Shown here one piece after another: positions 1 through 11,095 of a stretch of 11,095 nucleotides of DNA. The notes under the pieces are model-generated. The model was not told the DNA's origin and searched no databases. It saw only the letters and a program-made list of their open reading frames with translations. Origin of the DNA: a virus. The position numbers and the translations under genes are program-made. The stretch is from the IMG/VR virus record IMGVR_UViG_3300020227_000065, positions 1 to 11,095 of that record. One strand, 5' to 3'. Each line of letters opens with the position of its first letter. Position 1 is the first letter of the stretch.

Positions 1-70
1 GCCCCCCCCCCTCTAATTGTCCAAATCCCCATAATAGTCTGACAATTATGTGCGAGTGAAGGTGGCTAAA

Positions 71-190
71 GATTCAAAATGATTAGAATTATCTGACAAT
101 ACGATCTATGATTCTAAAAGATTTCTGATAATTCAAAATGATTTTTTAACTTGACAACATGGGTCAAATATGATTCTATTTTGATTCATA
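71..190. repeat. Degenerate ~60-bp direct duplication inside the ITR, with three conserved blocks per unit
   Basis: ATTCAAAATGATT occurs at 72-84 and 131-143. TGACAA occurs at 94-99 and 152-157. TATGATTCTA occurs at 107-116 and 169-178. The block order is the same in both units, offset by 58-62 bp. The structure is mirrored in ITR-R. Confidence 0.6.
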
Positions 191-210
191 AATGGGGCAT
201 GTTGTCAAGT
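149..210. repeat. 13-bp inverted repeat (ACTTGACAACATG / CATGTTGTCAAGT) with a 36-nt spacer at the inner edge of ITR-L
   Basis: Arms at 149-161 and 198-210 are perfectly complementary. The left arm contains a consensus TTGACA (151-156). T-rich sequence follows (212-222). Confidence 0.8.
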
Positions 211-259
211 ATGTTTTATTTTGTCATATTTTGTTCTCTATTTTGTTAAGTCTTTTCTA

Positions 260-288
260 TTGCAATTAGATTCTATTTGTATTAGAAT
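260..288 (+). promoter_or_regulatory. Sigma-A-like early promoter candidate, TTGCAA-17 nt-TAGAAT
   Basis: TTGCAA at 260-265, a 17-nt spacer, then TAGAAT at 283-288. T-rich TATTTTG repeats lie upstream. It is ~15 nt upstream of the strong SD (AAGAGGTGA, 304-312) of the first ORF. Confidence 0.5.
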
Positions 289-317
289 AGTAGATAGTTA
301 GAAAAGAGGTGAAACAT

Positions 318-428
318 ATGACTATTAAGTGTAGAGTTTGGAACTCACTCACTAAAAAAGAAAAGTTGAAAATGCTACAAATAGAAGTAGAATATAACAT
401 TTTCAACTATATAAAGAAAGTATCCTAA
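318..428 (+). CDS. Untracked 36-aa micro-ORF (MTIKCRVWNSLTKKEKLKMLQIEVEYNIFNYIKKVS), hypothetical early protein
   Basis: Hand-translated: ATG at 318, TAA at 426-428. It has the best SD in the window (AAGAGGTGA), 5 nt upstream of the ATG. It is the first ORF downstream of the promoter candidate. No recognisable motif. Confidence 0.4.
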   Translation: MTIKCRVWNSLTKKEKLKMLQIEVEYNIFNYIKKVS

Positions 429-460
429 AACATTATAACATAGAAAAGGGGATTTTATTC

Positions 461-808
461 ATGGGATTTTTAGATAAGTATAATAAGAAACCATTATTTG
501 AGTATGACAACAACAAGGAAAGGGAATATATCAACTTGGAAGGGTTGGTCAATCATTTTGGAATTATGGAGGTTTATGATGTTCATGCATTGTTCATTAA
601 TACAAAATCAAGATATGGTGATGCACCTATCATTGTAACAGATGAATACATGGTAAACGCACCCCATCATCTATTAGAAACAGTAAAAGAAATGCTGGCG
701 GATAGTGATTTGATTAACATGATAAACAATAGAAAAGTAGGGTTCACTATCTATGGTTACAACGGTAAAAACGGTTATGGGTATTCAGTAGAATGGGTTG
801 AAAAGTAA
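461..808 (+). CDS. 115-aa early protein, possibly a phi29 p5-like single-stranded DNA-binding protein
   Basis: SD AAAGGGGA lies upstream. Size, position and a loose pattern match to my recollection of phi29 p5: YGDA...TV.E...DLI......F.V......KGN.F.S versus SRYGDAP...ETVKEMLADSDLINMINNRKVGFTIYGYNGKNGYGYS. A dedicated terminator follows. The functional call is tentative. Confidence 0.4.
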   Translation: MGFLDKYNKKPLFEYDNNKEREYINLEGLVNHFGIMEVYDVHALFINTKSRYGDAPIIVTDEYMVNAPHHLLETVKEMLADSDLINMINNRKVGFTIYGYNGKNGYGYSVEWVEK

Positions 809-816
809 GCTAATAA

Positions 817-846
817 AGGGGTGATTTAATTCACCCCTATTTTTAT
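817..846 (+). terminator. Rho-independent terminator/attenuator after the 115-aa gene
   Basis: Stem AGGGGTGA (817-824) / TCACCCCT (831-838), 6-nt loop TTTAAT, then ATTTTTAT. There is no room for a new promoter before the next start at 863. Confidence 0.8.
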
Positions 847-862
847 AAAAGAAGGTGAAGGA

Positions 863-1099
863 ATGGGAAAAAATAATATGTTGATTATTGGGAAATATTG
901 TCGTAATTACCGCATAACTATATTAGAATTAAGGTTACAAGATATAGAAGGGAATGAAAATGTAAAGTCTTTGTCTAGCTTTGAACATGGTAGAAGTAGC
1001 AACATTAACCACCTATTAAAATATGTAAAAGCATGTGAAACCAAACAACAAAAACTAGATTTTTTACAAGGATTGATTACAACTATAGAAGGTGAATAA
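863..1099 (+). CDS. Small helix-turn-helix (XRE/Cro-like) transcriptional regulator, 78 aa
   Basis: IGKYCRNYRITILELRLQDIEGNENVKSLSSFEHGRSSNINHLLKY fits the HTH_3 pattern (helix, ...S.[FI]E.G...). SD GAAGGTGAAGGA lies upstream. The stop TAA abuts the next ATG (1097-1102). Confidence 0.6.
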   Translation: MGKNNMLIIGKYCRNYRITILELRLQDIEGNENVKSLSSFEHGRSSNINHLLKYVKACETKQQKLDFLQGLITTIEGE

Positions 1100-1756
1100 A
1101 TGGTACTAGATAAAAGTTGGAAAAATATTGATAGGAAAATAGAAACGGGTCAAGAAAAATTTCAAAAGAAACAAGAAGCAAAAATAAGGAAATACCGGCA
1201 AGAAGCGTCAAGAAAAGTTAGTATGGCAAATAAACGATTGCAACGGTTGGAATTTAATAAACTTACAGACAATACCGCATATCAAAGTTTAGTAGGGGAA
1301 GATGGGAAGAAACCCCGTTTTAGTATTAGGGGAAAAGATTATAATGAAGTGCAACGGGAAGTTGCTAGAATGAATAAATTTTTAAATGCGGAAACTTCTA
1401 CTGTAAGGGGTTCTAATAGAGTATTAAAAGAAATGGCAAAAAATACGGGTATCAAATATAAAAATTTAACGGAATTAAAAAAGTCGGCTAGTAGTTTTTT
1501 CAGATTAGCAAACAAGGTAGAAGAATATTTAAGAACCGTAGAAGATAGAGCAAGTGCGGTAGGGTATCAAAAAATATGGGAAGCGGTAAACCAATATGTA
1601 CAAGAAGAAAGCATAGATTTAGCGGAAGCGGAAAACGATATTGATTATATGGTGGATAAGGTAGTAAAGAAAATTGATAAGGTTATGAATGAAGAAGAAA
1701 AATTTACTTTCTATGATACAGGTATGAAAGTAACAGGTTGGTACACGTTAAAATAA
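1100..1756 (+). CDS. Candidate terminal (priming) protein, 218 aa
   Basis: It sits immediately upstream of the protein-primed PolB, as in phi29 (gene 3-gene 2) and Bam35. The N-terminus is highly basic (KFQKKQEAKIRKYRQEASRK). The C-terminus is rich in Ser/Thr/Tyr (FTFYDTGMKVTGWYTLK). The genome has ITRs. I recognise no sequence motif, so the call is positional. Confidence 0.5.
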   Translation: MVLDKSWKNIDRKIETGQEKFQKKQEAKIRKYRQEASRKVSMANKRLQRLEFNKLTDNTAYQSLVGEDGKKPRFSIRGKDYNEVQREVARMNKFLNAETSTVRGSNRVLKEMAKNTGIKYKNLTELKKSASSFFRLANKVEEYLRTVEDRASAVGYQKIWEAVNQYVQEESIDLAEAENDIDYMVDKVVKKIDKVMNEEEKFTFYDTGMKVTGWYTLK

Positions 1757-1771
1757 TAGGGGATATGTAAA

Positions 1772-3883
1772 ATGATAGATATTAAACAACTAAAAATAGA
1801 AAACTTACAATCTATCAATATACCCACTATTAGAACCAATAAGAAAATAGAATATCTGAATATAGAAAGTGCATTCGATATTGAAACAACTTCTATAAAA
1901 TTACAGGGTGATGAAAAAAGCGCATTTATGTATATATGGATGTTCGGCATAGGTTATGGGGAAAATGTTTACTATGGTAGAACATGGAAACAATTTATAG
2001 ATTTATGTAAAATCCTACAAAAAACATACGGACTAAATAAAAACAAAAGATTAGTAGTTTATGTTCATAACCTGGGATATGAATTTCAATTCATGCGGAA
2101 ATATTTTGAATGGGAAAATGTTTTTGCGGTTGGGGAACGAAAACCCATAAAAGCACTATGTACCTATGGAATAGAATTTAGGGATAGTTATATATTAAGT
2201 GGGTATTCACTAGCAAAAACAGGGGAAAACCTACAAAAACACAATATCCAAAAATTAACGGGTGATCTAGATTATTCATTAATAAGAACCCAACATACTA
2301 CATTAACAGATGAAGAAATGGCATATTGTAACAATGATATAGAAGTAGTAAACGCGTATATCAATGAACAAATAGAACAATACGGGGATATTACAAAAAT
2401 ACCCTTAACAAATACGGGAAGGGTTAGAAGTTATGTAAGAAATAATTGTTATTATACAAGCAAGAATCATAGAAAATCAAGTAAGGGAAAATATTACCGT
2501 TATCGTAAAATCATGAATGATCTAACCGTTACTAAAGATGAATATGTAAGGTTAAAACGTGCTTTTATGGGGGGATTTACACACGCAAACGCAAATTATA
2601 GCGGTCAATTACTGGAAGGGGTAACAAGTATAGATTTTACAAGTAGCTATCCTAGTGTTATGTTAGCGGAACAATATCCAATGAGTAGGGGAAAAGAAGT
2701 ACAAATAAAAAACATATCCCATTTAGAATGGTACTGTAATAAATTTTGTATGTTGTTTGATATAAAATTACACAATGTAAGAAGTAAAATTCCACAAGAA
2801 AACTACATAAGTGAAAGTAAGTGCTATGTTTTAAAAGGTGCGGAAATTAATAATGGTAGGGTGTATAGTGCGGAAGAACTAGCCATGACAATTACTAATG
2901 TAGATTATGATATTATCAAACAATGTTATGAATGGGACGGAATAAGTGTTACTAATGTAATACGATACCACAAGGGATATTTACCTAAACCCATTATAGA
3001 AAGTATTTTAAAATTATATCAAGATAAAACCGTATTAAAAGGGGTAGAAGGGTATGAAGTCGAATACCTACTATCTAAAGGAATGTTAAATAGCGTATAT
3101 GGTATGTGTGTAACGGATATTGTAAAAGATGAACATACCTACTTAGATGAATGGGGAAAAGAGCCAGCTAACATAGAAGAACAAATACAAAAATACAATG
3201 AAAGTAAAAATAGATTCTTATATTACCCTTGGGGTGTATGGGTTACGGCATATGCAAGAAAAAATTTATGGACCGGTATTTTAGCATTAGGGAATGATTA
3301 TGTTTATAGTGATACAGATTCTATTAAAATGTTGAATTATGAAAAACATTTAGATTATATTGGTTGGTATAATACTATGACGGTACAAAAATTACAAGAA
3401 ATGTGTAAACATTATAAAATAGATGATAAACTATTAGAACCAAAAACCAAAAAAGGTGAAAGGAAAATGATAGGGATATGGGATTATGAAGGAACATATT
3501 CCCGTTTTAAAACATTAGGGGCGAAAAGATACCTAGTACAAGAAGGTGATAAACTCTTTTTAACGGTTGCAGGCCTTTCTAAACAAAATGGGATAAATTA
3601 CATGATTGAACAGTGTAATGGTGATTATGAAAAAGTTTTTCATATGTTTAATGATGAATTATATGTACCTGCTGAACGTACGGGGAAAATGACACACACC
3701 TATATAGATGAAAAACAAGAATACAGAATAAAAGACTATCAAGGAAACGATTCTACTATTAGTGTAGAAAGTGGAATACATTTAGAACCATGTGACTTTA
3801 CATTAAGTATATCCAAGCAATACGGAAAATTTTTAGATCAATTTATGAAAGGTTATTTATTTAAGGGGGTACAATACCAATGA
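1772..3883 (+). CDS. Protein-primed family B DNA polymerase, 703 aa
   Basis: Motifs by residue:
- Exo I: FDIETT (D36/E38)
- Exo II: HNLGYEF (99-105)
- Exo III: YCNNDIEVV (Y185/D189)
- Pre-motif A: FMGGFT
- Motif A: DFTSSYPS (D288)
- Motif B: KGMLNSVYG (K436)
- Motif C: YSDTDS (D514/D516)
- KxY: GAKRYL
All are collinear with phi29 DNA polymerase. Confidence 0.97.
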   Translation: MIDIKQLKIENLQSINIPTIRTNKKIEYLNIESAFDIETTSIKLQGDEKSAFMYIWMFGIGYGENVYYGRTWKQFIDLCKILQKTYGLNKNKRLVVYVHNLGYEFQFMRKYFEWENVFAVGERKPIKALCTYGIEFRDSYILSGYSLAKTGENLQKHNIQKLTGDLDYSLIRTQHTTLTDEEMAYCNNDIEVVNAYINEQIEQYGDITKIPLTNTGRVRSYVRNNCYYTSKNHRKSSKGKYYRYRKIMNDLTVTKDEYVRLKRAFMGGFTHANANYSGQLLEGVTSIDFTSSYPSVMLAEQYPMSRGKEVQIKNISHLEWYCNKFCMLFDIKLHNVRSKIPQENYISESKCYVLKGAEINNGRVYSAEELAMTITNVDYDIIKQCYEWDGISVTNVIRYHKGYLPKPIIESILKLYQDKTVLKGVEGYEVEYLLSKGMLNSVYGMCVTDIVKDEHTYLDEWGKEPANIEEQIQKYNESKNRFLYYPWGVWVTAYARKNLWTGILALGNDYVYSDTDSIKMLNYEKHLDYIGWYNTMTVQKLQEMCKHYKIDDKLLEPKTKKGERKMIGIWDYEGTYSRFKTLGAKRYLVQEGDKLFLTVAGLSKQNGINYMIEQCNGDYEKVFHMFNDELYVPAERTGKMTHTYIDEKQEYRIKDYQGNDSTISVESGIHLEPCDFTLSISKQYGKFLDQFMKGYLFKGVQYQ

Positions 3884-4980
3884 GTAAAAAAGAACAAAAA
3901 CCTAAATATTATAGTTTGAACCGTATTAAGAAAAAAAATGCGGTTTACAATGTAATATTTGGGGAACGTTCAAATGGGAAAACATATGCGGTATTAAAAG
4001 AGGGGATAGAAAACTACTGGAAAACAGGGGGGCAAATAGCGGTAGTTAGAAGATGGAAAGAAGATATAACAGGGAAACGGGCGCAAGGAATTTTTAATGC
4101 ATTAAATGAAAATGATGAGATACGAAAAATAACGAATGATGAGTTTGAAGGGGTACACTATTACAACGGTAAATTTTATTTATGTACCTATAAAGATAAT
4201 AAAGTAGTTTACAATGATACGGATATTATAGGATATACCTTTGCATTATCGGATAATGAACACAATAAAAGTATTTCCTATCCTAGAGTGCAGATAATTC
4301 TATTTGATGAATTTTTAACGAAACATTTATATTTAAATGATGAATTTGTTTTATTTATGAATACGATTTCCACTATTGTAAGACAACGGACAGACGTAAA
4401 AATATATATGCTAGGGAATACCGTAAATAAATACTGCCCATATTTTCAAGAAATGGGATTGAACCATATATTGAAAATGGAACAAGGTACAATAGATGTT
4501 TATAAATATGGGGAAAGTGGTTTAACGGTTGCGGTGGAATACTGCGCAAGTACCCAACATAAAAAAGCGAATAACTTCTATTTTGCTTTTAACAATCCTA
4601 AATTAGAAATGATAACAGGGGGCGCATGGGAATTAAATATTTACCCCCATAGTCCTATTAAGTTTAAGCCTAAAGATATTAAACTAATTTACTTCATTCT
4701 ATTTAACGATAATACCTATCAATGCGAAATAGTGGTAAAAGGAAACATTACATTTACATTTATTCATATTAAAACTACAGAATTACAGAATACTGAAAAG
4801 GATTTAATCTATACACTAGAATATATTCCCAAAATAAATTATAATAGAAACATATTTAAGCCTATTAATAAGGTGCAAGAAAAAATTGTATGGTATTTTA
4901 AAACGGATAGAGTGTATTACCAAAATAATGAAGTAGGAGATGCAATCTCTAACTACTTAAAAATATGTAAGAGAGGATAG
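3880..4980 (+). CDS. phi29 gp16-like DNA encapsidation (packaging) ATPase, 366 aa
   Basis: YNVIFGERSNGKTYAVLK...GGQIAVVRRWKED matches gp16 LNFVIGARGIGKSYAMKV...GEQFIYVRRYKPE (Walker A). YPRVQIILFDEFL matches gp16 YPNVSTIVFDEFI (Walker B). ATGA overlap with the polymerase stop. Confidence 0.9.
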   Translation: MSKKEQKPKYYSLNRIKKKNAVYNVIFGERSNGKTYAVLKEGIENYWKTGGQIAVVRRWKEDITGKRAQGIFNALNENDEIRKITNDEFEGVHYYNGKFYLCTYKDNKVVYNDTDIIGYTFALSDNEHNKSISYPRVQIILFDEFLTKHLYLNDEFVLFMNTISTIVRQRTDVKIYMLGNTVNKYCPYFQEMGLNHILKMEQGTIDVYKYGESGLTVAVEYCASTQHKKANNFYFAFNNPKLEMITGGAWELNIYPHSPIKFKPKDIKLIYFILFNDNTYQCEIVVKGNITFTFIHIKTTELQNTEKDLIYTLEYIPKINYNRNIFKPINKVQEKIVWYFKTDRVYYQNNEVGDAISNYLKICKRG

Positions 4981-4983
4981 AAT

Positions 4984-5169
4984 ATGATGGACGAATTTAC
5001 AAGTTTAATTAGTAACGTAGGATTCCCGATCGCAATTAGTATTGCCTTATTTTATCAATTAATGAAAACCAATGAAATAGTACGGGAATTTCAATCTACA
5101 ATAGATAATAATACCGCTACAATGGAAAGAATGTTGGATAGATTAGAAGATACTAAAAAGGTGGGGTAG
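4984..5169 (+). CDS. 61-aa single-pass membrane protein, YvrJ-family-like; the only holin candidate
   Basis: One hydrophobic segment (LISNVGFPIAISIALFYQLM) followed by a charged C-terminal tail. The SLISNVGFPI...Y.L pattern resembles the YvrJ family as I remember it. Confidence 0.5.
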   Translation: MMDEFTSLISNVGFPIAISIALFYQLMKTNEIVREFQSTIDNNTATMERMLDRLEDTKKVG

Positions 5170-5172
5170 TAG

Positions 5173-6213
5173 ATGTATAATTATAAAAATAAAAGGGATA
5201 ACATAAAACAGTTAAATAAATATATGTTATCCCGCACCCTTTCTATGTTTAACTATTCGGATTTACCTACTACATTACCTAGTGTAGAAATGGAAAAACA
5301 GTTACAGAAAAAAGGGTACACCTTTATTACTATGGTAGAGGGTTCATTGTATGCATTTCAGGGGGGTTTAGGTGGTGAACCCAACCCCTATGGACAACCA
5401 ACGAAAATAACCATTAATAACCCTTCATTAAACTATAGTGCAACATTAGATATAGAAAAAGATGGGGTATTAATTAAAAATGATGATATGATGATGGGGT
5501 TGTTTACACTATTTGATAAATATAATACCTTATTAATTGAAAATGAAATTACTATGTTTATAAATTCCTACAATACGAGGGTTCAAACGCTTTTAAGTGC
5601 AGGTGATGATTCTACCAAAGAAAGTGCGGAATTATACCTAAAGAAAGTAATAGAAGGGGAATTGGGTATCATAGGGGAAAACCAATTATTTGAGGATTTA
5701 AAAGTGCAAAAAGCGCAAGCAGACAATGCAAACGTAACAACTCAACTAATAGAGTTTAACCAATATTTGAAAGCAAGTCTATATAATGAAGTAGGCTTAA
5801 ATGCTAACTTTAATATGAAAAGGGAAAGACTAAATTCTAGTGAGGTGAAACTCAATACCGACAACCTATACCCCCTTATTCATAATATGCTAGAAAATCG
5901 AAAACAAGGCATAGAGAAACTAAATGAAATGTATGATTTACAAATAGGTGTGGAATTTGGTTCTATATGGAATTTTAGAAATATTAGTGATACAATAGAA
6001 GAACCTAAAGAAACCATAGACGAACAAGAAGAACCAACATTGGAAAATGAAGAACCTTCATTGGAACAAGAAGAACCTATTTTGGAAGATGAAGAACCAA
6101 CATTGGAAAATGAAGAACCAATTTCGGAAGATGAAGAACCAATTTCGGAAGATGAAGAACCAATTTCGGAAGATGAAAGTGCTACTACATTAGAGGAGGT
6201 GGAAAAAAGATGA
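5173..6213 (+). CDS. Portal / upper collar (connector) protein with an acidic C-terminal repeat tail, 346 aa
   Basis: The N-terminal pattern LSRTLSMFNYSDLPTTLPSVEMEKQLQKKGYTFIT resembles phi29 gp10 ([28 protein letters not shown]). Its size and its position next to the packaging ATPase fit a portal. The C-terminal 50 aa are (EEPxxE[NQD])7. Confidence 0.75.
   Translation: MYNYKNKRDNIKQLNKYMLSRTLSMFNYSDLPTTLPSVEMEKQLQKKGYTFITMVEGSLYAFQGGLGGEPNPYGQPTKITINNPSLNYSATLDIEKDGVLIKNDDMMMGLFTLFDKYNTLLIENEITMFINSYNTRVQTLLSAGDDSTKESAELYLKKVIEGELGIIGENQLFEDLKVQKAQADNANVTTQLIEFNQYLKASLYNEVGLNANFNMKRERLNSSEVKLNTDNLYPLIHNMLENRKQGIEKLNEMYDLQIGVEFGSIWNFRNISDTIEEPKETIDEQEEPTLENEEPSLEQEEPILEDEEPTLENEEPISEDEEPISEDEEPISEDESATTLEEVEKR
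6028..6174 (+). repeat. In-frame tandem repeat, 7 x 21 bp, encoding EEPTLEN/EEPSLEQ/EEPILED/EEPTLEN/EEPISED x3
   Basis: Units start at 6028, 6049, 6070, 6091, 6112, 6133 and 6154. Units 5-7 are identical at nucleotide level (63 bp) and units 1 and 4 are identical. A degenerate copy lies upstream (5998-6027, EEPKETIDEQ). Confidence 0.95.
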
Positions 6214-6749
6214 TGTTTAATGAGTGGATAAAAGATAATTCTTTATTTAGTGAAATTGATTCTATTAAACCTTTCCCCTTTATATCTCAACATGGGGCAA
6301 AAAACATAGATTTAGTTTATAAAATGAGTTATGGAAGTAAAACCATTCCCAAAAATGTGGAATGTTTAACGGTTAATGAAGTTGCTAACATAATTGTTGT
6401 TAATTATGGGGATAGCTGGAATAACAAATATAGCCTATTAAAAGATGAAATTTTATTAGGGGTGGAAGAAAAAACCGTATTAGATGAAACCGTAACAGAT
6501 GAATATTTAAGGACTATGAGTAGTAACCAAGAAAATAAAGTAAGTGCTTTTAATGATGATGAATTAAGTCCTAACGATTCTAGCAATGATTCCCTAAATG
6601 ATAAAAGCGATAAAGATGTAAACAGGAATAGGGAAATTACAAAAACAAGTTTGAACGCTATTAAAACACAATTAGAAATATTCAATTCCAATTTTATCAA
6701 TATAGTATGTAAAGATGTAAGTAAAATTGTTTCACTATCAATCTATTAA
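6210..6749 (+). CDS. Hypothetical 179-aa morphogenesis/virion protein with an acidic Ser/Asn/Asp-rich linker
   Basis: Strong SD GAGGAGGTGG (6192-6201) and an ATGA overlap with the portal stop. Low-complexity segment SPNDSSNDSLNDKSDKDVNRN. It occupies the slot after the portal where phi29 has the lower collar, but I recognise no motif. Confidence 0.55.
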   Translation: MMFNEWIKDNSLFSEIDSIKPFPFISQHGAKNIDLVYKMSYGSKTIPKNVECLTVNEVANIIVVNYGDSWNNKYSLLKDEILLGVEEKTVLDETVTDEYLRTMSSNQENKVSAFNDDELSPNDSSNDSLNDKSDKDVNRNREITKTSLNAIKTQLEIFNSNFINIVCKDVSKIVSLSIY

Positions 6750-6778
6750 AAGGGGAATGTAAAATGAAAATTACACAA
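6748..6778 (+). repeat. Duplicated translation-initiation region, copy 1 (SD + ATG + MKITQ codons)
   Basis: AAAAGGgGAATGTAAAATGAAAATTACACAA matches 7074-7104 at 30 of 31 positions. The 24 nt at 6755-6778 are identical to 7081-7104. Confidence 0.9.
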
Positions 6779-7033
6779 CACTTTTCTAACCTAATGAAGG
6801 AATTAGAAAGTGACTTTAAAAAAGCAAGTAGCTATAATGCCTATTCGAAATTTCATGAAATGGTTACTATTAGAGCAAAGGCTGGGGCATATAGAGAGAT
6901 ATTAAGACCGTTACTATTAGATCATACTAAACAACATTTAAACGGTGATGTAAAAAGGTTTAATGAAGAGTTGAAAGTTTTTCAGGAAAAATGTAGTAAT
7001 CAAATTAATAAAGTATTAAACGATGTAATCTAA
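6764..7033 (+). CDS. 89-aa predicted helical protein, candidate scaffolding protein
   Basis: It lies directly upstream of the major capsid gene, as phi29 gp7 (98 aa) lies upstream of gp8. It is small, charged and heptad-like in composition. The call rests on position and composition only. Confidence 0.4.
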   Translation: MKITQHFSNLMKELESDFKKASSYNAYSKFHEMVTIRAKAGAYREILRPLLLDHTKQHLNGDVKRFNEELKVFQEKCSNQINKVLNDVI

Positions 7034-7073
7034 TAAAAAACAACATTTTAATTTTAGACTATAAATTTATCTA

Positions 7074-7104
7074 AAAAGGAGAATGTAAAATGAAAATTAC
7101 ACAA
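7074..7104 (+). repeat. Duplicated translation-initiation region, copy 2 (SD + ATG + MKITQ codons)
   Basis: AAAAGGaGAATGTAAAATGAAAATTACACAA. See copy 1. Confidence 0.9.
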
Positions 7105-8250
7105 TTACACGAATTAGTAAACATGGCCACACAAGAAGTATTAGGAACAGAAGTCGTAGTAAATGAAGATTTAAGTAATATTGTAGATGTTGGTAATCAA
7201 ATTATTAATAGTGATAATGTTGATAACTATGTTAAAAAGCTAGTGAATCATATTGGAAAAGTAACATTTAAGAACCGCCTATATAGTGGGGGTGCGCCTA
7301 GTGTATTAATGGATTCATGGGAATATGGTTCAATCCTAGAAAAAGTTAGTGCGGATATGCCACACGCTACAGAAAATTCAAGTGCTATGCTTAAAAATGG
7401 GGAAGATTATTCACCCGATATTTTCTACCAACCTTCAGTTAGCGCACAGTTTTTCAATAGCAAAATCACCTTTGAAATTCCTTTATCATTTACGGAAAGA
7501 CAAGTAAAAGAATCATTCAGTAATGCGAATCAATTAAACGGATTTATTTCCATGCTTTCAACAAGTGTAGAAAATGCTATGACTGTGAAGCTAGATTCCC
7601 TTATTATGCGCACTATCAATAATATGACGGGAGAAACATTAAAAGCTGATCTAGATAATGAGGGTGAAATTGATTTAACTAGCACAGGGGTAAAAGCGGT
7701 AAACCTTCTAAAATTGTATAATGAAGAATATGGGGAAACATTAGAAAAAAATAAAGCACTATCAAATAGTAATTTTATTCGATACGCAACCTATATCATA
7801 GGGTTGTATAGTGATAGAATCTCTAAAATTAGTACCCTGTTCAATATTGGGGGAAAAGAACGTTTCACAAGTGGGGATTTTAAAAAGACTGTTTTATTAT
7901 CAGACTTTGAAAAAGCTAGTAATATTTTCTTGAAAGCAGATATTCAAAATCAAGAACAAATTACGTTGCCAACCCATGAAACCGTACCATATTGGCAAGG
8001 TAGCGGAAATTCATATAGCTTTGATGATGTTTCAAGTATTAATGTTAAAACTTCTACAGGTGCGGAAGTGAACGCATCGGGAATTTTGGGGGTTATGTTT
8101 GATAGGGAAGCTATAGGGGTTGCAAACCTAGATAGAAGGGTAACAACCAATTACAACCCTAAAGCAGAATTTTATACGAACTTCTATAAATTTGATGCTG
8201 GATATTATAACGATTTGAATGAAAACTTTGTAGTATTTTTCATAGGTTAA
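7090..8250 (+). CDS. Major capsid protein (phi29 gp8-like, HK97 fold expected), 386 aa
   Basis: The N-terminal pattern ...VGNQIINSDNVDNYVKKLVNHIGKV resembles gp8 ...[26 protein letters not shown]. It is the largest head-module ORF, lies downstream of the scaffold-like gene, and is followed by a strong terminator. Confidence 0.7.
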   Translation: MKITQLHELVNMATQEVLGTEVVVNEDLSNIVDVGNQIINSDNVDNYVKKLVNHIGKVTFKNRLYSGGAPSVLMDSWEYGSILEKVSADMPHATENSSAMLKNGEDYSPDIFYQPSVSAQFFNSKITFEIPLSFTERQVKESFSNANQLNGFISMLSTSVENAMTVKLDSLIMRTINNMTGETLKADLDNEGEIDLTSTGVKAVNLLKLYNEEYGETLEKNKALSNSNFIRYATYIIGLYSDRISKISTLFNIGGKERFTSGDFKKTVLLSDFEKASNIFLKADIQNQEQITLPTHETVPYWQGSGNSYSFDDVSSINVKTSTGAEVNASGILGVMFDREAIGVANLDRRVTTNYNPKAEFYTNFYKFDAGYYNDLNENFVVFFIG

Positions 8251-8259
8251 TCATTTCAT

Positions 8260-8290
8260 GGGGTGCGGTTAATCGTACCCCTTTTATTTT
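8260..8290 (+). terminator. Rho-independent terminator/attenuator after the capsid gene
   Basis: Stem GGGGTGCG (8260-8267) / CGTACCCC (8274-8281), 8 bp including one G-U pair. Loop GTTAAT, then TTTTATTTT (8282-8290). Confidence 0.85.
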
Positions 8291-8302
8291 GGGGGTGTAA
8301 GG

Positions 8303-8740
8303 GTGGAAATTACGTTATATAATACATTGGATAATGATAATGTTATCAATAAAGATTTAACTATGATTTATTCATTTAGTTTGAAATTGAAAAAAGATAC
8401 GGACATTGTAAACCCTACTATATTATTGAATGATAAAAATAGTATGGATTTTACAGAATGTAATTATTGTTATTTAGAAGATTTTAACCGTTATTACTTC
8501 ATTAGGGATATAGAAAGCATAAATAATAATATTTGGCGGTTGGCACTGGAATGTGATGTACTGGAAACCTATAAAGATGATATATTGAATAGTGATGTTG
8601 AAATAAACAGGAAAATAAAACAAGGCGATTTTATAGAAGGTAATTTTAAAACACAAGTTATAAAAGAGGTAGACATATATAAAAGTGATGTAGTTATGGA
8701 AGATGTGAGTAAAATTATACTTTCTACTATAGGGGGTTAA
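8303..8740 (+). CDS. 145-aa tail protein resembling the N-terminal domain of phi29 gp9-type tail knob proteins; GTG start
   Basis: CNYCYLEDFNRYYFIRDIESINNNIWRLALECDVLETYKDDI compares with gp9 [47 protein letters not shown], sharing the E.DVL.T signature. The GTG at 8303 sits 7 nt after GGGGG (8291-8295). The first in-frame ATG is 20 codons further in. Confidence 0.5.
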   Translation: MEITLYNTLDNDNVINKDLTMIYSFSLKLKKDTDIVNPTILLNDKNSMDFTECNYCYLEDFNRYYFIRDIESINNNIWRLALECDVLETYKDDILNSDVEINRKIKQGDFIEGNFKTQVIKEVDIYKSDVVMEDVSKIILSTIGG

Positions 8741-8743
8741 TGT

Positions 8744-10204
8744 ATGGCTATTAAAAGTAGGCATTTTTATTGGGATATTGAAAATAGGCATAGGGTAGAA
8801 TCATTTTTTATTTATAATCATGGTAGTGGTACGGGTGCGGATAGAAACTATATGGAAGAATCATTTGATTATCAATTTACAGGGGAAAATACCTATACTA
8901 TTACAATTAATGCTAAGAGTGGTTATGGTTTTATTGAACCCCCGTTAATACGTCATTTTACAAGTGCGGATTCCACTGTGAGTGATTCATCTATACCAAT
9001 GGAAATTAATGAGGATAGAACACAAGCAACATTTACATTTACCAATGGAAACGGGAATTATTACGGGTTGGATAATGACTGGAAATTATATCTTTATAGT
9101 GAAGTAGAAGATTATTTAGGAATAGTTAAAACCTTTACCGCTTCATTACTAATGAATAATGTTACTTGTCATTTTAAAAATGGAACGGAAACCATTACCC
9201 TAAATTATGGGGAAAGTAAAGAAATTCCCGTAGGTAATTATAATATTGAAATAGTAGTAAATAATGGTTTTAAAATTGTTAGTATTACCGCAACCCATGA
9301 AGAAATTGGTCCTAATCCAAGTGGGGAAATGTATTTTTCTATATCAGATGATGGGAAGAAAGCAACGGGGAATAGTGATTTTAATGAAGGGGATACCCTA
9401 ACTATTAGGGGTGTAACGGAAATTGTAGAGGGTGTGCCTAGTGTAGTAGGTACGTTTAACCATTTATATTTAATAGATAGTACCAATTTACGAAAATTAA
9501 CGAATCATATTACAGTAATGGAAGCTAAAGAAGAAAGAGATACCATTCAACAGTATATGATAAATGTATTAAGATTCCCATTCAATATAAATGAAACCCA
9601 TATAATAGGTAATAATGGGGTTATATTAGGGGCGAAAATATTTGATAAATTAGAAGTATTAGAAATAGATATAGATCAACTAACTATAGATATGGGTAAA
9701 ATAGAAATACCGTTAAAATATAATAATACCTTTGATTATCTAAATACAAGTTGTATTTTACATTTACCCTACTCAGAAAATATAGAGTTAGAACCTAGTT
9801 ATATTATAGGTGAAACTATTTTTATAGAATATATTGTAAGTCTATATGATGGGGAAGGAACAATAAATATTAGTAGTAGCAAGATAGATGATGTTTTTCT
9901 ATCCCAACCTATCAAAATAGGTACGGTTATACCTTATTTTAACCATAATCAAAAAGGATACACACAATCCCAGCAAACATTGTTAGGTGTATATAATAAG
10001 TTAAAACAGGCATATGTAGAAGTAATTAGGAACATACCATATGAAAATGATAGTCCATTTAATGATGGGGTGATAACTCAATCTAAATTAAAAAATGAAA
10101 AGGGTTATGTTAAAGTGAATAATATAATACTAGAAAATAAAGCAACTTCACAAGAAAGAAATGAAATTATTAGAATGTTGGAAAGTGGGGTATTTATTAA
10201 ATGA
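8744..10204 (+). CDS. 486-aa tail protein: beta-rich N-terminal half (candidate receptor-binding modules) plus a conserved-looking C-terminal tail-tube/knob-like half
   Basis: SD AGGGGG lies 7 nt upstream. It is the only large ORF between the capsid and lysis genes. The N-terminal ~240 aa contain two similar beta-strand-like modules (YTITINAKSGYGFIEPP and YNIEIVVNNGFKIVSITAT). The C-terminal half has LHLPYSENIELEPSYIIGETIFIEYIVSLYDGEGTINI, a pattern I associate with phage tail hub/knob barrels. Confidence 0.5.
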   Translation: MAIKSRHFYWDIENRHRVESFFIYNHGSGTGADRNYMEESFDYQFTGENTYTITINAKSGYGFIEPPLIRHFTSADSTVSDSSIPMEINEDRTQATFTFTNGNGNYYGLDNDWKLYLYSEVEDYLGIVKTFTASLLMNNVTCHFKNGTETITLNYGESKEIPVGNYNIEIVVNNGFKIVSITATHEEIGPNPSGEMYFSISDDGKKATGNSDFNEGDTLTIRGVTEIVEGVPSVVGTFNHLYLIDSTNLRKLTNHITVMEAKEERDTIQQYMINVLRFPFNINETHIIGNNGVILGAKIFDKLEVLEIDIDQLTIDMGKIEIPLKYNNTFDYLNTSCILHLPYSENIELEPSYIIGETIFIEYIVSLYDGEGTINISSSKIDDVFLSQPIKIGTVIPYFNHNQKGYTQSQQTLLGVYNKLKQAYVEVIRNIPYENDSPFNDGVITQSKLKNEKGYVKVNNIILENKATSQERNEIIRMLESGVFIK

Positions 10205-10878
10205 TGTACTATGACAAAAGAAACCGTAACAACATTAAAAAACTAGCAAATAACACTAGAAAAAAGGCTTTGCAATGGTATGAATTTTGTGTAAAGAATA
10301 ACATTAATATTTTAGTATATGAAACAATTAGGGACGAAAAAACGCAACGGGAGAACGTGCAGAAAGGTGTTTCTCAAACCATGAAAAGTTACCATTTAGT
10401 AGGACAAGCACTGGATTTTGTACCCGTTAATTCTAAAGGTGAAACCCTATGGAATGGGTATGGTGCTAGTGATATAAAGAAAGCTATTGAACATGCCAAA
10501 AAACTAGGCTTTGAATGGGGTGGCGATTGGAAAGGTTTCATAGATAAACCCCACCTACAATATAATTATAATGGTTATGGTTCGGATTCATTCGATAAAC
10601 CTTCTAATAATGAACAAATAACAATGGATATTGAAAACCTAGTAAAACGTACTATTAGAGGTGATTTTGGTAACGGTGAAGAACGTAAAAGAAAATTAGG
10701 TTCTAATTATCAAAGAGTACAAGATATTATTAATGGTAAAACTTATAATAATTCAGTTAATATTGACGATTTAGTGAAGCGTACTATTAGAGGTGAATTT
10801 GGCAACGGTGCTGAACGTAAAAAGAAACTAGGAAAACATTACAATGAAGTGCAAAAAAGAATAAATAAAATGTATTAA
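10201..10878 (+). CDS. Endolysin: peptidase M15 (VanY/L-Ala-D-Glu peptidase-like, LAS fold) catalytic domain + two CW_7 (Cpl-7-type) cell-wall-binding repeats
   Basis: Zn ligand pattern SYH65LVGQALD72 (H-x6-D), EWGGDW and DKPH118LQ. Two repeats carry LVKRTIRG[DE]FGNG.ERK.KLG..Y..VQ..IN, matching the CW_7 consensus. No signal peptide. ATGA overlap with the upstream gene. Confidence 0.9.
   Translation: MMYYDKRNRNNIKKLANNTRKKALQWYEFCVKNNINILVYETIRDEKTQRENVQKGVSQTMKSYHLVGQALDFVPVNSKGETLWNGYGASDIKKAIEHAKKLGFEWGGDWKGFIDKPHLQYNYNGYGSDSFDKPSNNEQITMDIENLVKRTIRGDFGNGEERKRKLGSNYQRVQDIINGKTYNNSVNIDDLVKRTIRGEFGNGAERKKKLGKHYNEVQKRINKMY
10627..10872 (+). repeat. Two CW_7 repeat units (10627-10737 and 10762-10872) within the endolysin
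   Basis: aa 143-179 and aa 188-224 are highly similar. The nucleotide strings are also close (…CGTACTATTAGAGGTGA[TA]TTTGG[TC]AACGGTG…GAACGTAAAA…). Confidence 0.85.
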
Positions 10879-10884
10879 TAACTT

Positions 10885-11095
10885 TACTTGACAACATGCC
10901 CCATTTATGAATCAAAATAGAATCATATTTGACCCATGTTGTCAAGTTAAAAAATCATTTTGAATTATCAGAAATCTTTTAGAATCATAGATCGTATTGT
11001 CAGATAATTCTAATCATTTTGAATCTTTAGCCACCTTCACTCGCACATAATTGTCAGACTATTATGGGGATTTGGACAATTAGAGGGGGGGGGGC
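10885..11095. repeat. Right inverted terminal repeat (ITR-R), 211 bp, ending GGGGGGGGGGC-3'
   Basis: Exact reverse complement of 1-211. It begins 6 nt after the endolysin stop codon (10876-10878). Confidence 0.97.
10886..10947. repeat. Mirror copy of the 13-bp-arm inverted repeat at the inner edge of ITR-R, immediately after the last gene
   Basis: Arms at 10886-10898 and 10935-10947. It starts 8 nt after the endolysin stop and is the only potential RNA hairpin downstream of the + strand gene train. Confidence 0.8.

Follow-up and report, generated by a model that had tools for sequence, protein, structure and literature searches.

We consider it highly probable that the window, the whole 11.1-kb stretch of viral DNA analyzed here (GC 30.6%), represents nearly all of the linear genome of a virulent, phi29-type mini-podophage of the astrithr/DU_PP_III/Phanie group, an explanation in which we include the helper and host discussed below. 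Gene set and gene order are common to the window and this group (Table 1), and the original prediction of a phi29-type, protein-primed genome of ~11 kb bounded by inverted terminal repeats (ITRs) was right. The lineage itself is not new; the window is a new, divergent member of a known group.

Table 1. Features of the window, in order of nucleotide position
Feature	Position	Strand	Basis
Left ITR	1..211	.	Perfect complement of 10885-11095
Imperfect palindrome, ITR inner edge	149..210, mirror copy 10886-10947	.	Inverted repeats I3, I4
36-aa ORF	318..428	+	Ribosome-binding site present
Conserved early protein, 115 aa	461..808	+	Homologues in related loci
Terminator-like hairpin and T-run after 115-aa gene	817..838	+	Consensus match only
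Conserved small early protein, 78 aa	863..1099	+	Homologues in relatives
Putative terminal protein, 218 aa	1100..1756	+	Directly upstream of polymerase; homology
Protein-primed family B DNA polymerase, 703 aa	1772..3883	+	PF03175 1.6e-13; phrog_1907 6.6e-89
phi29 gp16-type DNA packaging ATPase, 366 aa	3880..4980	+	PF05894 6.7e-18; phrog_2150 1.2e-31
Holin-like membrane protein, 61 aa	4984..5169	+	phrog_4898 (holin) 1.9e-08
Connector/portal (upper collar), 346 aa	5173..6213	+	PF05352 2.4e-17; phrog_2038 1.5e-40
Conserved structural protein, candidate small lower collar, 179 aa	6210..6749	+	Position; weak matches
Orphan ORF, 89 aa, at place of phi29 scaffold gene	6764..7033	+	No homologue
phi29-type major capsid protein, 386 aa	7090..8250	+	PF25622 1e-54; phrog_2006 6.6e-34
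Terminator-like hairpin and T-run after capsid gene	8260..8281	+	9 pairs, 6 G-C
Tail knob, N-terminal part (separate protein), 145 aa	8303..8740	+	Profile match; phrog_2248 (tail protein) 5.9e-05
Tail knob, C-terminal part, 486 aa	8744..10204	+	Homology to gp10 C-terminal parts
Endolysin, M15 L-alanyl-D-glutamate peptidase and two CW_7 repeats	10201..10878	+	PF13539 (Peptidase_M15_4) 7.9e-14; PF08230 6.3e-21
Right ITR	10885..11095	.	Perfect complement of 1-211

Gene layout and relatives

The predicted unidirectional layout was confirmed, with all 14 open reading frames (ORFs) on the + strand and 93% of the window covered (13 ORFs of ≥60 aa with homologues plus a 36-aa ORF). A strong G-rich ribosome-binding site precedes each gene. 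GC and AT skews are positive along the whole window, the sole exception being an AT skew of −0.026 at 8001 to 8500. Between the end of the endolysin gene at 10878 and the start of the right repeat at 10885, there is no space for a minus-strand gene. Several relatives (L010, L031, L036, L046, L213, and others) are likewise unidirectional.

NCBI files DU_PP_III and Phanie under the genus Astrithrvirus, which includes Salmonella phage astrithr, and a 2024 review assigns the 11- to 14-kb phages Astrid, DU_PP_III, and Phanie to MCP cluster 23, beside the similarly small cluster 30 (PMC11476376). GenBank records of the group span 11,151 to 11,885 bp. Related capsid proteins were found in >300 IMG/VR stretches and >400 metagenome stretches, none of them on a contig longer than about 14 kb. 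The suggestion of a distinct, very reduced lineage is therefore correct with respect to phi29, Cp-1, C1, P68, and phage P1 but not as a claim of novelty. Core proteins of the window are 25 to 66% identical to those of DU_PP_III and Phanie, with nucleotide similarity of about 26 to 27%. No near-identical classified genome exists, and no near-identical complete genome was found; Logan contigs 90 to 100% identical to the window came from six sequencing runs.

Phanie (Aci01-2-Phanie, OX458330, 11,885 bp, Acinetobacter), described as a satellite podophage by Pourcel et al. (2024), shares the order small early gene, putative terminal protein, polymerase, ATPase, small membrane protein, connector, ~180-aa protein, capsid, 145-aa knob N-part, knob C-part, and lysin (protein identity, 28 to 65%; nucleotide similarity, about 26%). 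Its ITR carries a related terminal motif, GGGnTATCC followed by G and a C-run; like the window, it has a lysin ending in CW_7 and no fiber gene. In contrast, the right end of Phanie carries two minus-strand genes and that of the window none, and Phanie has a CHAP rather than M15 lysin, a GC content of 37%, and a knob C-part of 854 rather than 486 aa, the window having fewer inserted domains; of the two, only the window has the 89-aa orphan and, on the left, the 36-aa and 115-aa genes. DU_PP_III (MF979562, Pectobacterium) and Astrithrvirus (Salmonella phages astrithr, Astrid, and assan), at 11.5 to 11.7 kb, keep the same core module order (polymerase 59 to 65% and capsid 59 to 60% identical to the window); however, their similarity of about 27% is under the 70% genus threshold, and they carry two to four minus-strand genes at the right end and CHAP lysins.

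Intergenomic similarity to the window was higher for L213 (ENA ERZ4239850, 10,734 bp) and L133 (fermentation metagenome, 9,373 bp), at about 60% each, and for the complete relative L010 (IMG/VR 3300010244_000056, 10,020 bp), at 48%. All three are unidirectional, with GC contents of 30 to 31% and the window's gene order, including the left-end 115-aa gene; L213 matches the window in lysin type (M15+CW_7) as well. The 89-aa ORF and the first knob domain are missing from all three, and L010 lacks a lysin gene after the knob gene. phi29 (Bacillus, Salasmaviridae) shares with the window its polymerase, gp16-type ATPase, connector, and capsid families, its tail-knob fold family (N-part, via phage C1), and linear DNA with terminal repeats. 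phi29 differs in its 19.3-kb size, 6-nt repeats, divergent early and late operons, prohead RNA, one-gene knob, 293-aa lower collar, appendages (gp12), tail peptidoglycan hydrolase (gp13), and head fibers (PMC11476376 and established knowledge). These phi29-only features were not found in the window, the prohead RNA by Rfam search.

Terminal repeats and genome ends

Inverted-repeat analysis placed perfect 211-nt repeats (100% complementary) exactly at both window edges, as predicted, and chance cannot give this. The left ITR is the presumed replication origin. At the inner edge of each arm, the imperfect palindrome contains TTGACA (RNA fold z-scores of −5.0 and −6.6 for the two copies) and is a candidate operator or terminator.

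The window's ITR is homologous to those of its relatives in kind and in terminal motif. In a comparison of DU_PP_III, Phanie, L010, L036, and L046, relatives start with GGGATATCC ahead of a C-run; in the first three, the genome start reads GGG(A/T)TATCC, then G and the C-run. The window's first letter is the G that follows this motif (GCCCCCCCCCCTCT...). Since the relatives carry GGG(A/T)TATCC before that G, ~9 terminal nucleotides are probably absent from the window at each end. The description of the genome as complete is therefore slightly too strong. The contig does begin in a homopolymer run, a typical assembly break point, and some IMG/VR relatives have Illumina adapter sequence inside their terminal repeats, as might be expected if the ITRs were an assembly artifact or the contig a piece of a larger genome. 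Nevertheless, we regard such an origin as extremely improbable: homologous ITRs of 118 to 250 nt (Phanie, 171 nt; DU_PP_III, 219 nt; L010, 180 nt) with shared terminal motifs occur in independent isolates and metagenomic relatives, whose genomes are 10 to 12 kb with the window's gene order. Moreover, no gene of the set is missing relative to Phanie, and the related contigs do not exceed about 14 kb and show no bacterial flanks.

Replication, packaging, and head genes

Family and PDB matches identified a phi29-type DNA polymerase, packaging ATPase, connector, and capsid protein, along with a holin and an endolysin. Upstream of these, the 36-aa ORF had no family match; it recurs at 97% amino acid identity in a 90%-identical contig (L126), where it is called as a gene. 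Homologues of the 115-aa protein were present in 80 of 212 related loci (27 to 93% identity), each near a contig end and reading inward. This protein matched nothing in Pfam, PHROG, or PDB and is possibly the ssDNA-binding or DNA-binding protein reported for the small-phage group (PMC11476376). The 78-aa protein, with no Pfam match, is 33 to 43% identical to the first gene product of DU_PP_III and Phanie; in L213 and L133, identity is 60 to 72%. The 218-aa product is 54 to 57% identical to its equivalent in DU_PP_III and Phanie, and its family is kept in 61 loci. Because it had no match to known or solved terminal proteins, we infer that role from its position and its homology to the relatives' equivalent gene. 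The polymerase matched phi29 polymerase 1XHX (3.6e-10) and is 64.5% identical to its DU_PP_III and Phanie counterparts. By homology, the putative terminal protein would prime replication by this polymerase from both ITR ends, and full genome ends starting with GGG would make sliding-back possible.

The packaging ATPase (PDB matches 5HD9 [7.5e-12] and 7JQQ) is 64 to 66% identical to those of DU_PP_III and Phanie, and the connector (7PV2, 1FOU, and 1H5W) is 46 to 53% identical; a 21-nt tandem repeat (5980-6189, repeat family D1) encodes the connector's acidic C-terminal tail. Capsid protein identity was 59 to 65% with DU_PP_III and Phanie, 86% with L213, 82% with L133, and 74% with L010. These homologies suggest that the ATPase would package the DNA into a capsid of phi29 type, with entry via a connector that is also of this type. 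The 89-aa ORF is a strain-specific insertion: it has no homologue among the 212 related loci, is lacking in L124 and L125, two contigs of 95% identity, and is bracketed by a 31-nt direct repeat (D12; 6748-6778 and 7074-7104).

Tail, lysis genes, and host

The original prediction identified no lower collar, fiber, or appendage gene. This holds for the fiber and appendage, but the 179-aa gene is a weakly assigned candidate for the small lower collar, which has been mapped for the group at this place (PMC11476376). Its product is 25 to 28% identical to the DU_PP_III and Phanie equivalents, and AlphaFold2 modeled it with a helical N-domain, a C-terminal helix, and a long beta hairpin of low confidence. 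Foldseek against BFVD returned two unnamed proteins (1.8e-06 and 6.1e-06) and then weak "lower collar" matches (E, 0.4 to 2.8); neither fold nor profile comparison gave a PDB match.

Two genes together encode the tail knob. The N-part is 37 to 42% identical to those of DU_PP_III and Phanie, and its family profile matched the major tail protein of phage C1 (4EO2, residues 51 to 147; E = 1.6e-04) as well as chain 8EGS_Y (major tail protein). The C-part shares ~30% identity with the C-terminal regions of gp10 from DU_PP_III and Phanie; the C terminus of Phanie gp10 has been equated with that of phi29 p9 (PMC11476376). Conservation lies at residues ~235 to 486, and AlphaFold2 modeled residues ~37 to 230 as a pair of beta-sandwich domains; the first domain (aa 5 to 127) is strain-specific (369-nt indel versus L124/P0023). 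For the C-part there was no PDB match by profile or fold, and Foldseek gave only weak matches to Ig/FN3-like tandem-domain proteins. Only the 36- and 89-aa ORFs remain unassigned, leaving no room for a fiber gene. Fiber genes are lacking across the whole group, and a small lower collar, a two-gene knob, and no fiber genes are described for MCP cluster 23 (PMC11476376). Homology predicts a tail of just a small collar and a knob from two gene products.

Helper dependence is shown for Phanie only, which was reported to be noninfectious without a helper myophage tail (PMC11476376, citing Pourcel et al.). With moderate confidence, we extend it to the window: a particle without fiber, appendage, or separate wall-piercing enzyme probably cannot adsorb alone and may borrow the contractile tail of a coinfecting myophage, as shown for Phanie, with the variable beta-sandwich domains of the knob as the likely interface. 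Alternatively, the phage could be an autonomous minimal podophage whose short tail adsorbs by itself, the knob beta-sandwich domains binding the receptor and the endolysin perhaps opening the wall from the virion. The genome has complete modules for replication, packaging, head, knob, and lysis, the outer knob domains differ between 95%-identical strains, as often in receptor binders, and Salmonella phage Astrid was called "non-satellite" in a 2025 preprint; in addition, the lysin of Phanie is similar to the one at the tail tip of phage Andhra (PMC11476376). Autonomy is nonetheless doubtful, if a serious possibility, given that Phanie has the same tail gene set and that the window has neither a fiber or appendage gene nor space for one. 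Record names and descriptions also suggest other phages in several source preparations: one is named "K58 g2," one has a NODE_9 contig name in metagenome style, and one refers to a cocktail of nine phages.

The holin-like protein has identical copies in six Logan contigs, and the endolysin shares 60 to 67% identity with lysins from phages of Bacillus and Listeria; by homology, the two would lyse the cell. The endolysin gene overlaps the stop codon of the knob gene.

The named cellular homologues of the lysin domain are Bacillaceae in every case, which makes a host from this family probable. The strong G-rich ribosome-binding sites of all genes also favor such a host. The best phage matches of the catalytic domain came mostly from Bacillus phages and then from phages of Listeria and Geobacillus (58 to 67% identity). 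CW_7 is uninformative on host because the Phanie lysin also carries it. Cultured relatives all come from Gram-negative lysates (recorded from Salmonella, Pectobacterium, Acinetobacter, Enterobacter, Vibrio, and Shigella), and their lysins, that of Phanie included, are of the Gram-positive-looking CHAP+CW_7 type. Catalytic domains are freely swapped within the group. The window's phage might instead infect a Gram-negative host and have acquired only its Bacillaceae-like lysin domain horizontally. We consider this unlikely: the M15 domain is 54 to 75% identical to Bacillaceae and Bacillus-phage proteins, with no named match outside the family, and no spanin candidate was seen in the window, although the relatives also lack obvious spanins. 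The closest capsid-protein relative in the metagenome-collection scan came from a fermentation metagenome, which likewise argues against a Gram-negative host. MAG bins containing relatives, however, span many phyla, which weakens the case for the Bacillaceae.

Genome ends, gene content, and layout

The window represents a genuine phage genome that is close to complete; a minimal set of genes and the lack of a fiber are known traits of the group to which it belongs. Positions 1-211 and 10885-11095 are perfect reverse complements of 211 nt, with homologous termini in relatives, upholding the original prediction of a genome bounded by inverted terminal repeats (ITRs). The predicted unidirectional layout also held: all 14 ORFs (13 of 61 to 703 amino acids [aa] and one of 36 aa) lie on the plus strand, cover 93% of the sequence, and are each preceded by a G-rich ribosome-binding site. 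Every minus-strand ORF listed falls inside a conserved plus-strand gene. Both skews, GC and AT, stay positive throughout the window (GC content, ~30.6%), except for an AT skew of -0.026 at 8001-8500.

The genome had also been called complete, which proved nearly right. The window opens with a G followed by ten C residues (1-20; mirrored at 11076-11095). [quoted passage not shown] Because the window starts at this G, which the nine bases GGGnTATCC precede in relatives, ~9 nt are probably absent from each end; the full genome would then probably be ~11.11 kb, with ITRs of ~220 nt. The record of Enterobacter phage Entb_47 starts inside the C run and the window at the G before it, and the terminal homopolymer seems to be an assembly break point in the group. 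In three IMG/VR records (L056, L070, and L083), the first ~34 nt within the reported terminal repeats are Illumina adapter (GTGACTGGAGTTCAGACGTG or GTCTCGTGGGCTCGGAGATGTG), so part of those "ITRs" is artefactual. At the inner edge of each ITR of the window lies an imperfect palindrome, followed on the inward-reading strand by a T-rich tract (RNA fold z-scores of -5.0 and -6.6); the copy at 149-210 is a candidate that may act as an operator or terminator. A promoter scan of the window returned 76 sites against 64.6 ± 6.9 in shuffled sequences, indicating no excess.

In cultured relatives, the right end holds two to four genes on the minus strand, whereas the window has none; with the endolysin stop at 10878 and the right repeat starting at 10885, there is no space for them. 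Fully unidirectional layouts like that of the window also occur in many uncultured relatives, including L010, L031, L036, L046, and L213. Across genomes, the conserved 115-aa early gene (461-808 in the window) occupies one of two places: the left end, on the plus strand, or the right end, on the minus strand. In both it is close to the end of the contig and points inward. The layout of the window is therefore one of two common arrangements, and these placements suggest that the gene has moved from end to end. The observation covers the window and loci L012, L021, L022, L144, L167, and L168. A search of the 115-aa family profile against PDB sequences gave nothing meaningful, and a helix-turn-helix label for the 78-aa early protein was dropped, given that Pfam offers no support for it.

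Family matches for the polymerase, ATPase, connector, and capsid protein bore out the predicted phi29-type character of the genome (see table), and replication, packaging, capsid, and lysis functions would, by homology, follow the phi29 scheme. The terminal protein assignment is putative, based on position beside the polymerase and an equivalent gene in relatives; its family is kept in 61 related loci, and in searches with family profiles and PDB sequences it matched no terminal protein, whether catalogued or of solved structure. No RNA gene, and hence no prohead RNA, was matched in Rfam on either strand at E values up to 1, a search that a divergent RNA may escape, and ARAGORN found no tRNA in the window. 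The connector C terminus is encoded by a 21-nt tandem repeat (5980-6189) specifying acidic heptads of the form EEPxxE[DN]. Most Logan contigs of this phage reaching this repeat end inside it (6056-6099).

Features of the window, with the evidence for each assignment
Feature	Position	Strand	Evidence or description
Imperfect palindrome, ITR inner edge	149-210; mirror copy 10886-10947		13-bp perfect outer stem; TTGACA in both arms
Putative terminal protein, 218 aa	1100-1756	+	Directly upstream of polymerase; same gene in relatives
Protein-primed family B polymerase	1772-3883	+	PF03175 (1.6e-13); phi29 polymerase 1XHX (3.6e-10)
gp16-type packaging ATPase	3880-4980	+	PF05894; PDB 5HD9
Holin-like protein	4984-5169	+	phrog_4898
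phi29-type connector	5173-6213	+	PF05352; PDB 7PV2, 1FOU
Candidate small lower collar, 179 aa	6210-6749	+	Sole candidate for the collar reported in the group
Orphan 89-aa ORF in 326-nt unit	6764-7033; with flanking repeats, 6748-7104	+	Flanked by 31-nt direct repeat
phi29-type capsid protein	7090-8250	+	PF25622 (1e-54)
Knob N-terminal part, 145 aa	8303-8740	+	Family profile vs 4EO2 (phage C1 major tail protein) residues 51-147 (E = 1.6e-04); phrog_2248
Knob C-terminal part, 486 aa	8744-10204	+	Homology to Phanie gp10, and the 2024 review; conserved C-terminal half
In-frame insertion, 369 nt	8757-9125		Adds extra N-terminal beta-sandwich domain to knob protein
Endolysin	10201-10878	+	M15 peptidase domain and two CW_7 repeats

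Relatives and classification

A tblastn search with the polymerase recovered GenBank records of 10.4 to 11.9 kb at 49 to 65% identity, including Enterobacter phage Entb_47, Salmonella phages astrithr, Astrid, assan, and S.Kent 1-2-1, Vibrio phage K58 g2, and a Shigella phage. The window shares the traits of the astrithr/Phanie clade: gene order, a 10- to 14-kb genome with ITRs, a knob encoded by two genes, a gene of ~180 aa preceding that of the capsid protein, and no fiber gene. This clade, a family-level grouping, corresponds to MCP cluster 23 of PMC11476376. The group is also abundant, with at least 300 capsid-related stretches in IMG/VR and at least 402 in the metagenome collection, many carrying ITRs of 50 to 490 nt. 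The suggestion that the window might represent a distinct, very reduced lineage therefore fell as a claim of novelty, since the group, with its minimal gene set and absence of a fiber, was already described. Nor does the window found a category of its own, a published explanation already covering both the reduced set of genes and the absent fiber; within the smallest tailed-phage group known, it is a further divergent, near-complete genome.

By sequence comparison, the window is a new, divergent member of this group. DU_PP_III and Phanie, both listed under genus Astrithrvirus at NCBI, are collinear with it gene by gene, with proteins 25 to 66% identical. Nucleotide similarity to each is ~26 to 27% (blastn based), below the ICTV criterion for the genus, which asks for genome-wide similarity of at least 70% to the type species or another member; the comparison with the type species, astrithr, was at the protein level only. 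Under this nucleotide rule, the divergence of the window is probably at the genus level. Closest among near-complete genomes are L213 (ENA; 10,734 bp) and L133 (from a fermentation metagenome), each at ~60% similarity, followed by L010 (10,020 bp, ITR of 180 nt) at ~48%. No near-identical record was found among GenBank phages, where megablast gave a single 677-nt match (6% coverage, 74% identity), and an exact-protein look-up of the capsid protein and P0044 (the 11,095-bp JGI contig of the window itself) returned no match. Pieces of the same phage occur in Logan assemblies of six runs: SRR7698815 (the same strain, 99.9 to 100% identity), SRR33870480, -81, -83, and -84 (94 to 97.6%), and SRR30397417 (90%). 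A literature search with the SRA run numbers returned nothing relevant.

Tail proteins and a possible helper tail

The original prediction reported no lower collar, fiber, or tail hydrolase gene. For the fiber, appendage, and separate tail hydrolase this stood: no ORF in the window matches any of them, and only the ORFs of 36 and 89 aa are left without assignment. As to the collar, the group is described as having a small lower one (PMC11476376), and the 179-aa protein is the sole candidate for it. Its predicted model shows one helical domain, then a long hairpin, and ends in a helix; neither the family profile nor Foldseek gave a PDB match, and a Foldseek search of BFVD gave only weak matches, to lower collars.

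Two genes that share a reading frame encode the knob, with only a TAA stop and 3 nt between them (8738-8746). Relatives also keep two knob genes, arguing for a conserved split rather than a broken gene. Readthrough between the two was considered and rejected: the first gene ends in TAA, an ATG and a ribosome-binding site of its own precede the second, and relatives have the genes separate. The C-terminal region of Phanie gp10 corresponds to the phi29 knob's C-terminal portion (PMC11476376). The corresponding knob part in the window had no direct PDB match by profile or Foldseek. The N-terminal half of the 486-aa protein was modeled as two beta-sandwich domains, and Foldseek with the model of the protein returned only generic Ig/FN3 matches.

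Phanie virions are reported to be noninfectious unless a helper myophage supplies its contractile tail, with which chimeric particles form (PMC11476376, citing Pourcel et al. 2024), and related phages may also borrow helper tails (PMC11476376). The window carries the genomic correlate of this lifestyle, a set of tail genes like that of Phanie in which receptor binders are lacking. Record names and descriptions also hint at other phages in some source preparations: "K58 g2," a NODE_9 contig of a metagenome-style assembly, and a nine-phage cocktail. Alternatively, the window could be an autonomous minimal podophage with the knob domains serving as receptor binders; Astrid was called a non-satellite in a 2025 preprint. 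We favor dependence on a helper tail because of the account of Phanie and these record names, and would give such dependence about an even chance for the window.

Lysin, host, and strain-level variation

Lysins of the group, compared across the window and L001-L122, keep a constant CW_7 C terminus while the catalytic domain varies among CHAP, glucosaminidase, GH25, amidase_2, and M15, so CW_7 is uninformative about the host. Its use as a Gram-positive marker was rejected, since the Phanie lysin (CHAP plus CW_7) carries it as well. In L010 and some other complete relatives, no gene for a lysin follows that for the knob. The best phage matches of the M15 domain in the window are mostly Bacillus phages, then Listeria and Geobacillus phages (58 to 67% identity), and its named cellular homologues are all from Bacillaceae (including Cytobacillus, Bacillus, Metabacillus, Neobacillus, Niallia, Heyndrickxia, and Aquibacillus). 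Our best guess is a host in the Bacillaceae, which these matches make somewhat probable. This suggests that the group, whose cultured members so far all come from Gram-negative lysates, reaches Bacillaceae hosts. GTDB representative genomes contain 36 capsid-related stretches (L088-L123), all on contigs of metagenome-assembled genomes (MAGs), the longer of which (10 to 14 kb) match a whole phage in size. They fall in very different phyla, including Omnitrophota, Bacteroidota, Bacillota, Actinomycetota, and Cyanobacteria-like groups, a placement likely due to binning contamination; with whole phage contigs spread over so many phyla, bin labels were rejected as host evidence.

Strain-level differences were read against L124, a 95%-identical contig. 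The 326-nt unit with the 89-aa ORF is absent from L124, from L125 (also 95% identical), and from 212 related loci; its flanking 31-nt direct repeat duplicates the beginning of the capsid gene, with its ribosome-binding site and the codons for MKITQ. The 369-nt insertion in the knob gene is present in SRR7698815 (contig L132) and absent in SRR33870481 (L124, P0023). Tail borrowing has so far been demonstrated solely for Phanie. We offer only tentatively, as a rather doubtful reading, that the window is the first tail-borrowing satellite podophage infecting Bacillaceae, with the gained knob domain and orphan gene marking ongoing adaptation to a helper tail or host surface. On this same reading, a large Bacillus myophage serving as helper could even be the source from which the lysin domain was acquired. 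Taken with its 95%-identical relatives, the window shows where change is fastest: in the outer domains of the knob, in the catalytic domain of the lysin, and in where the early genes sit beside either ITR. These parts may bear on helper or host specificity.
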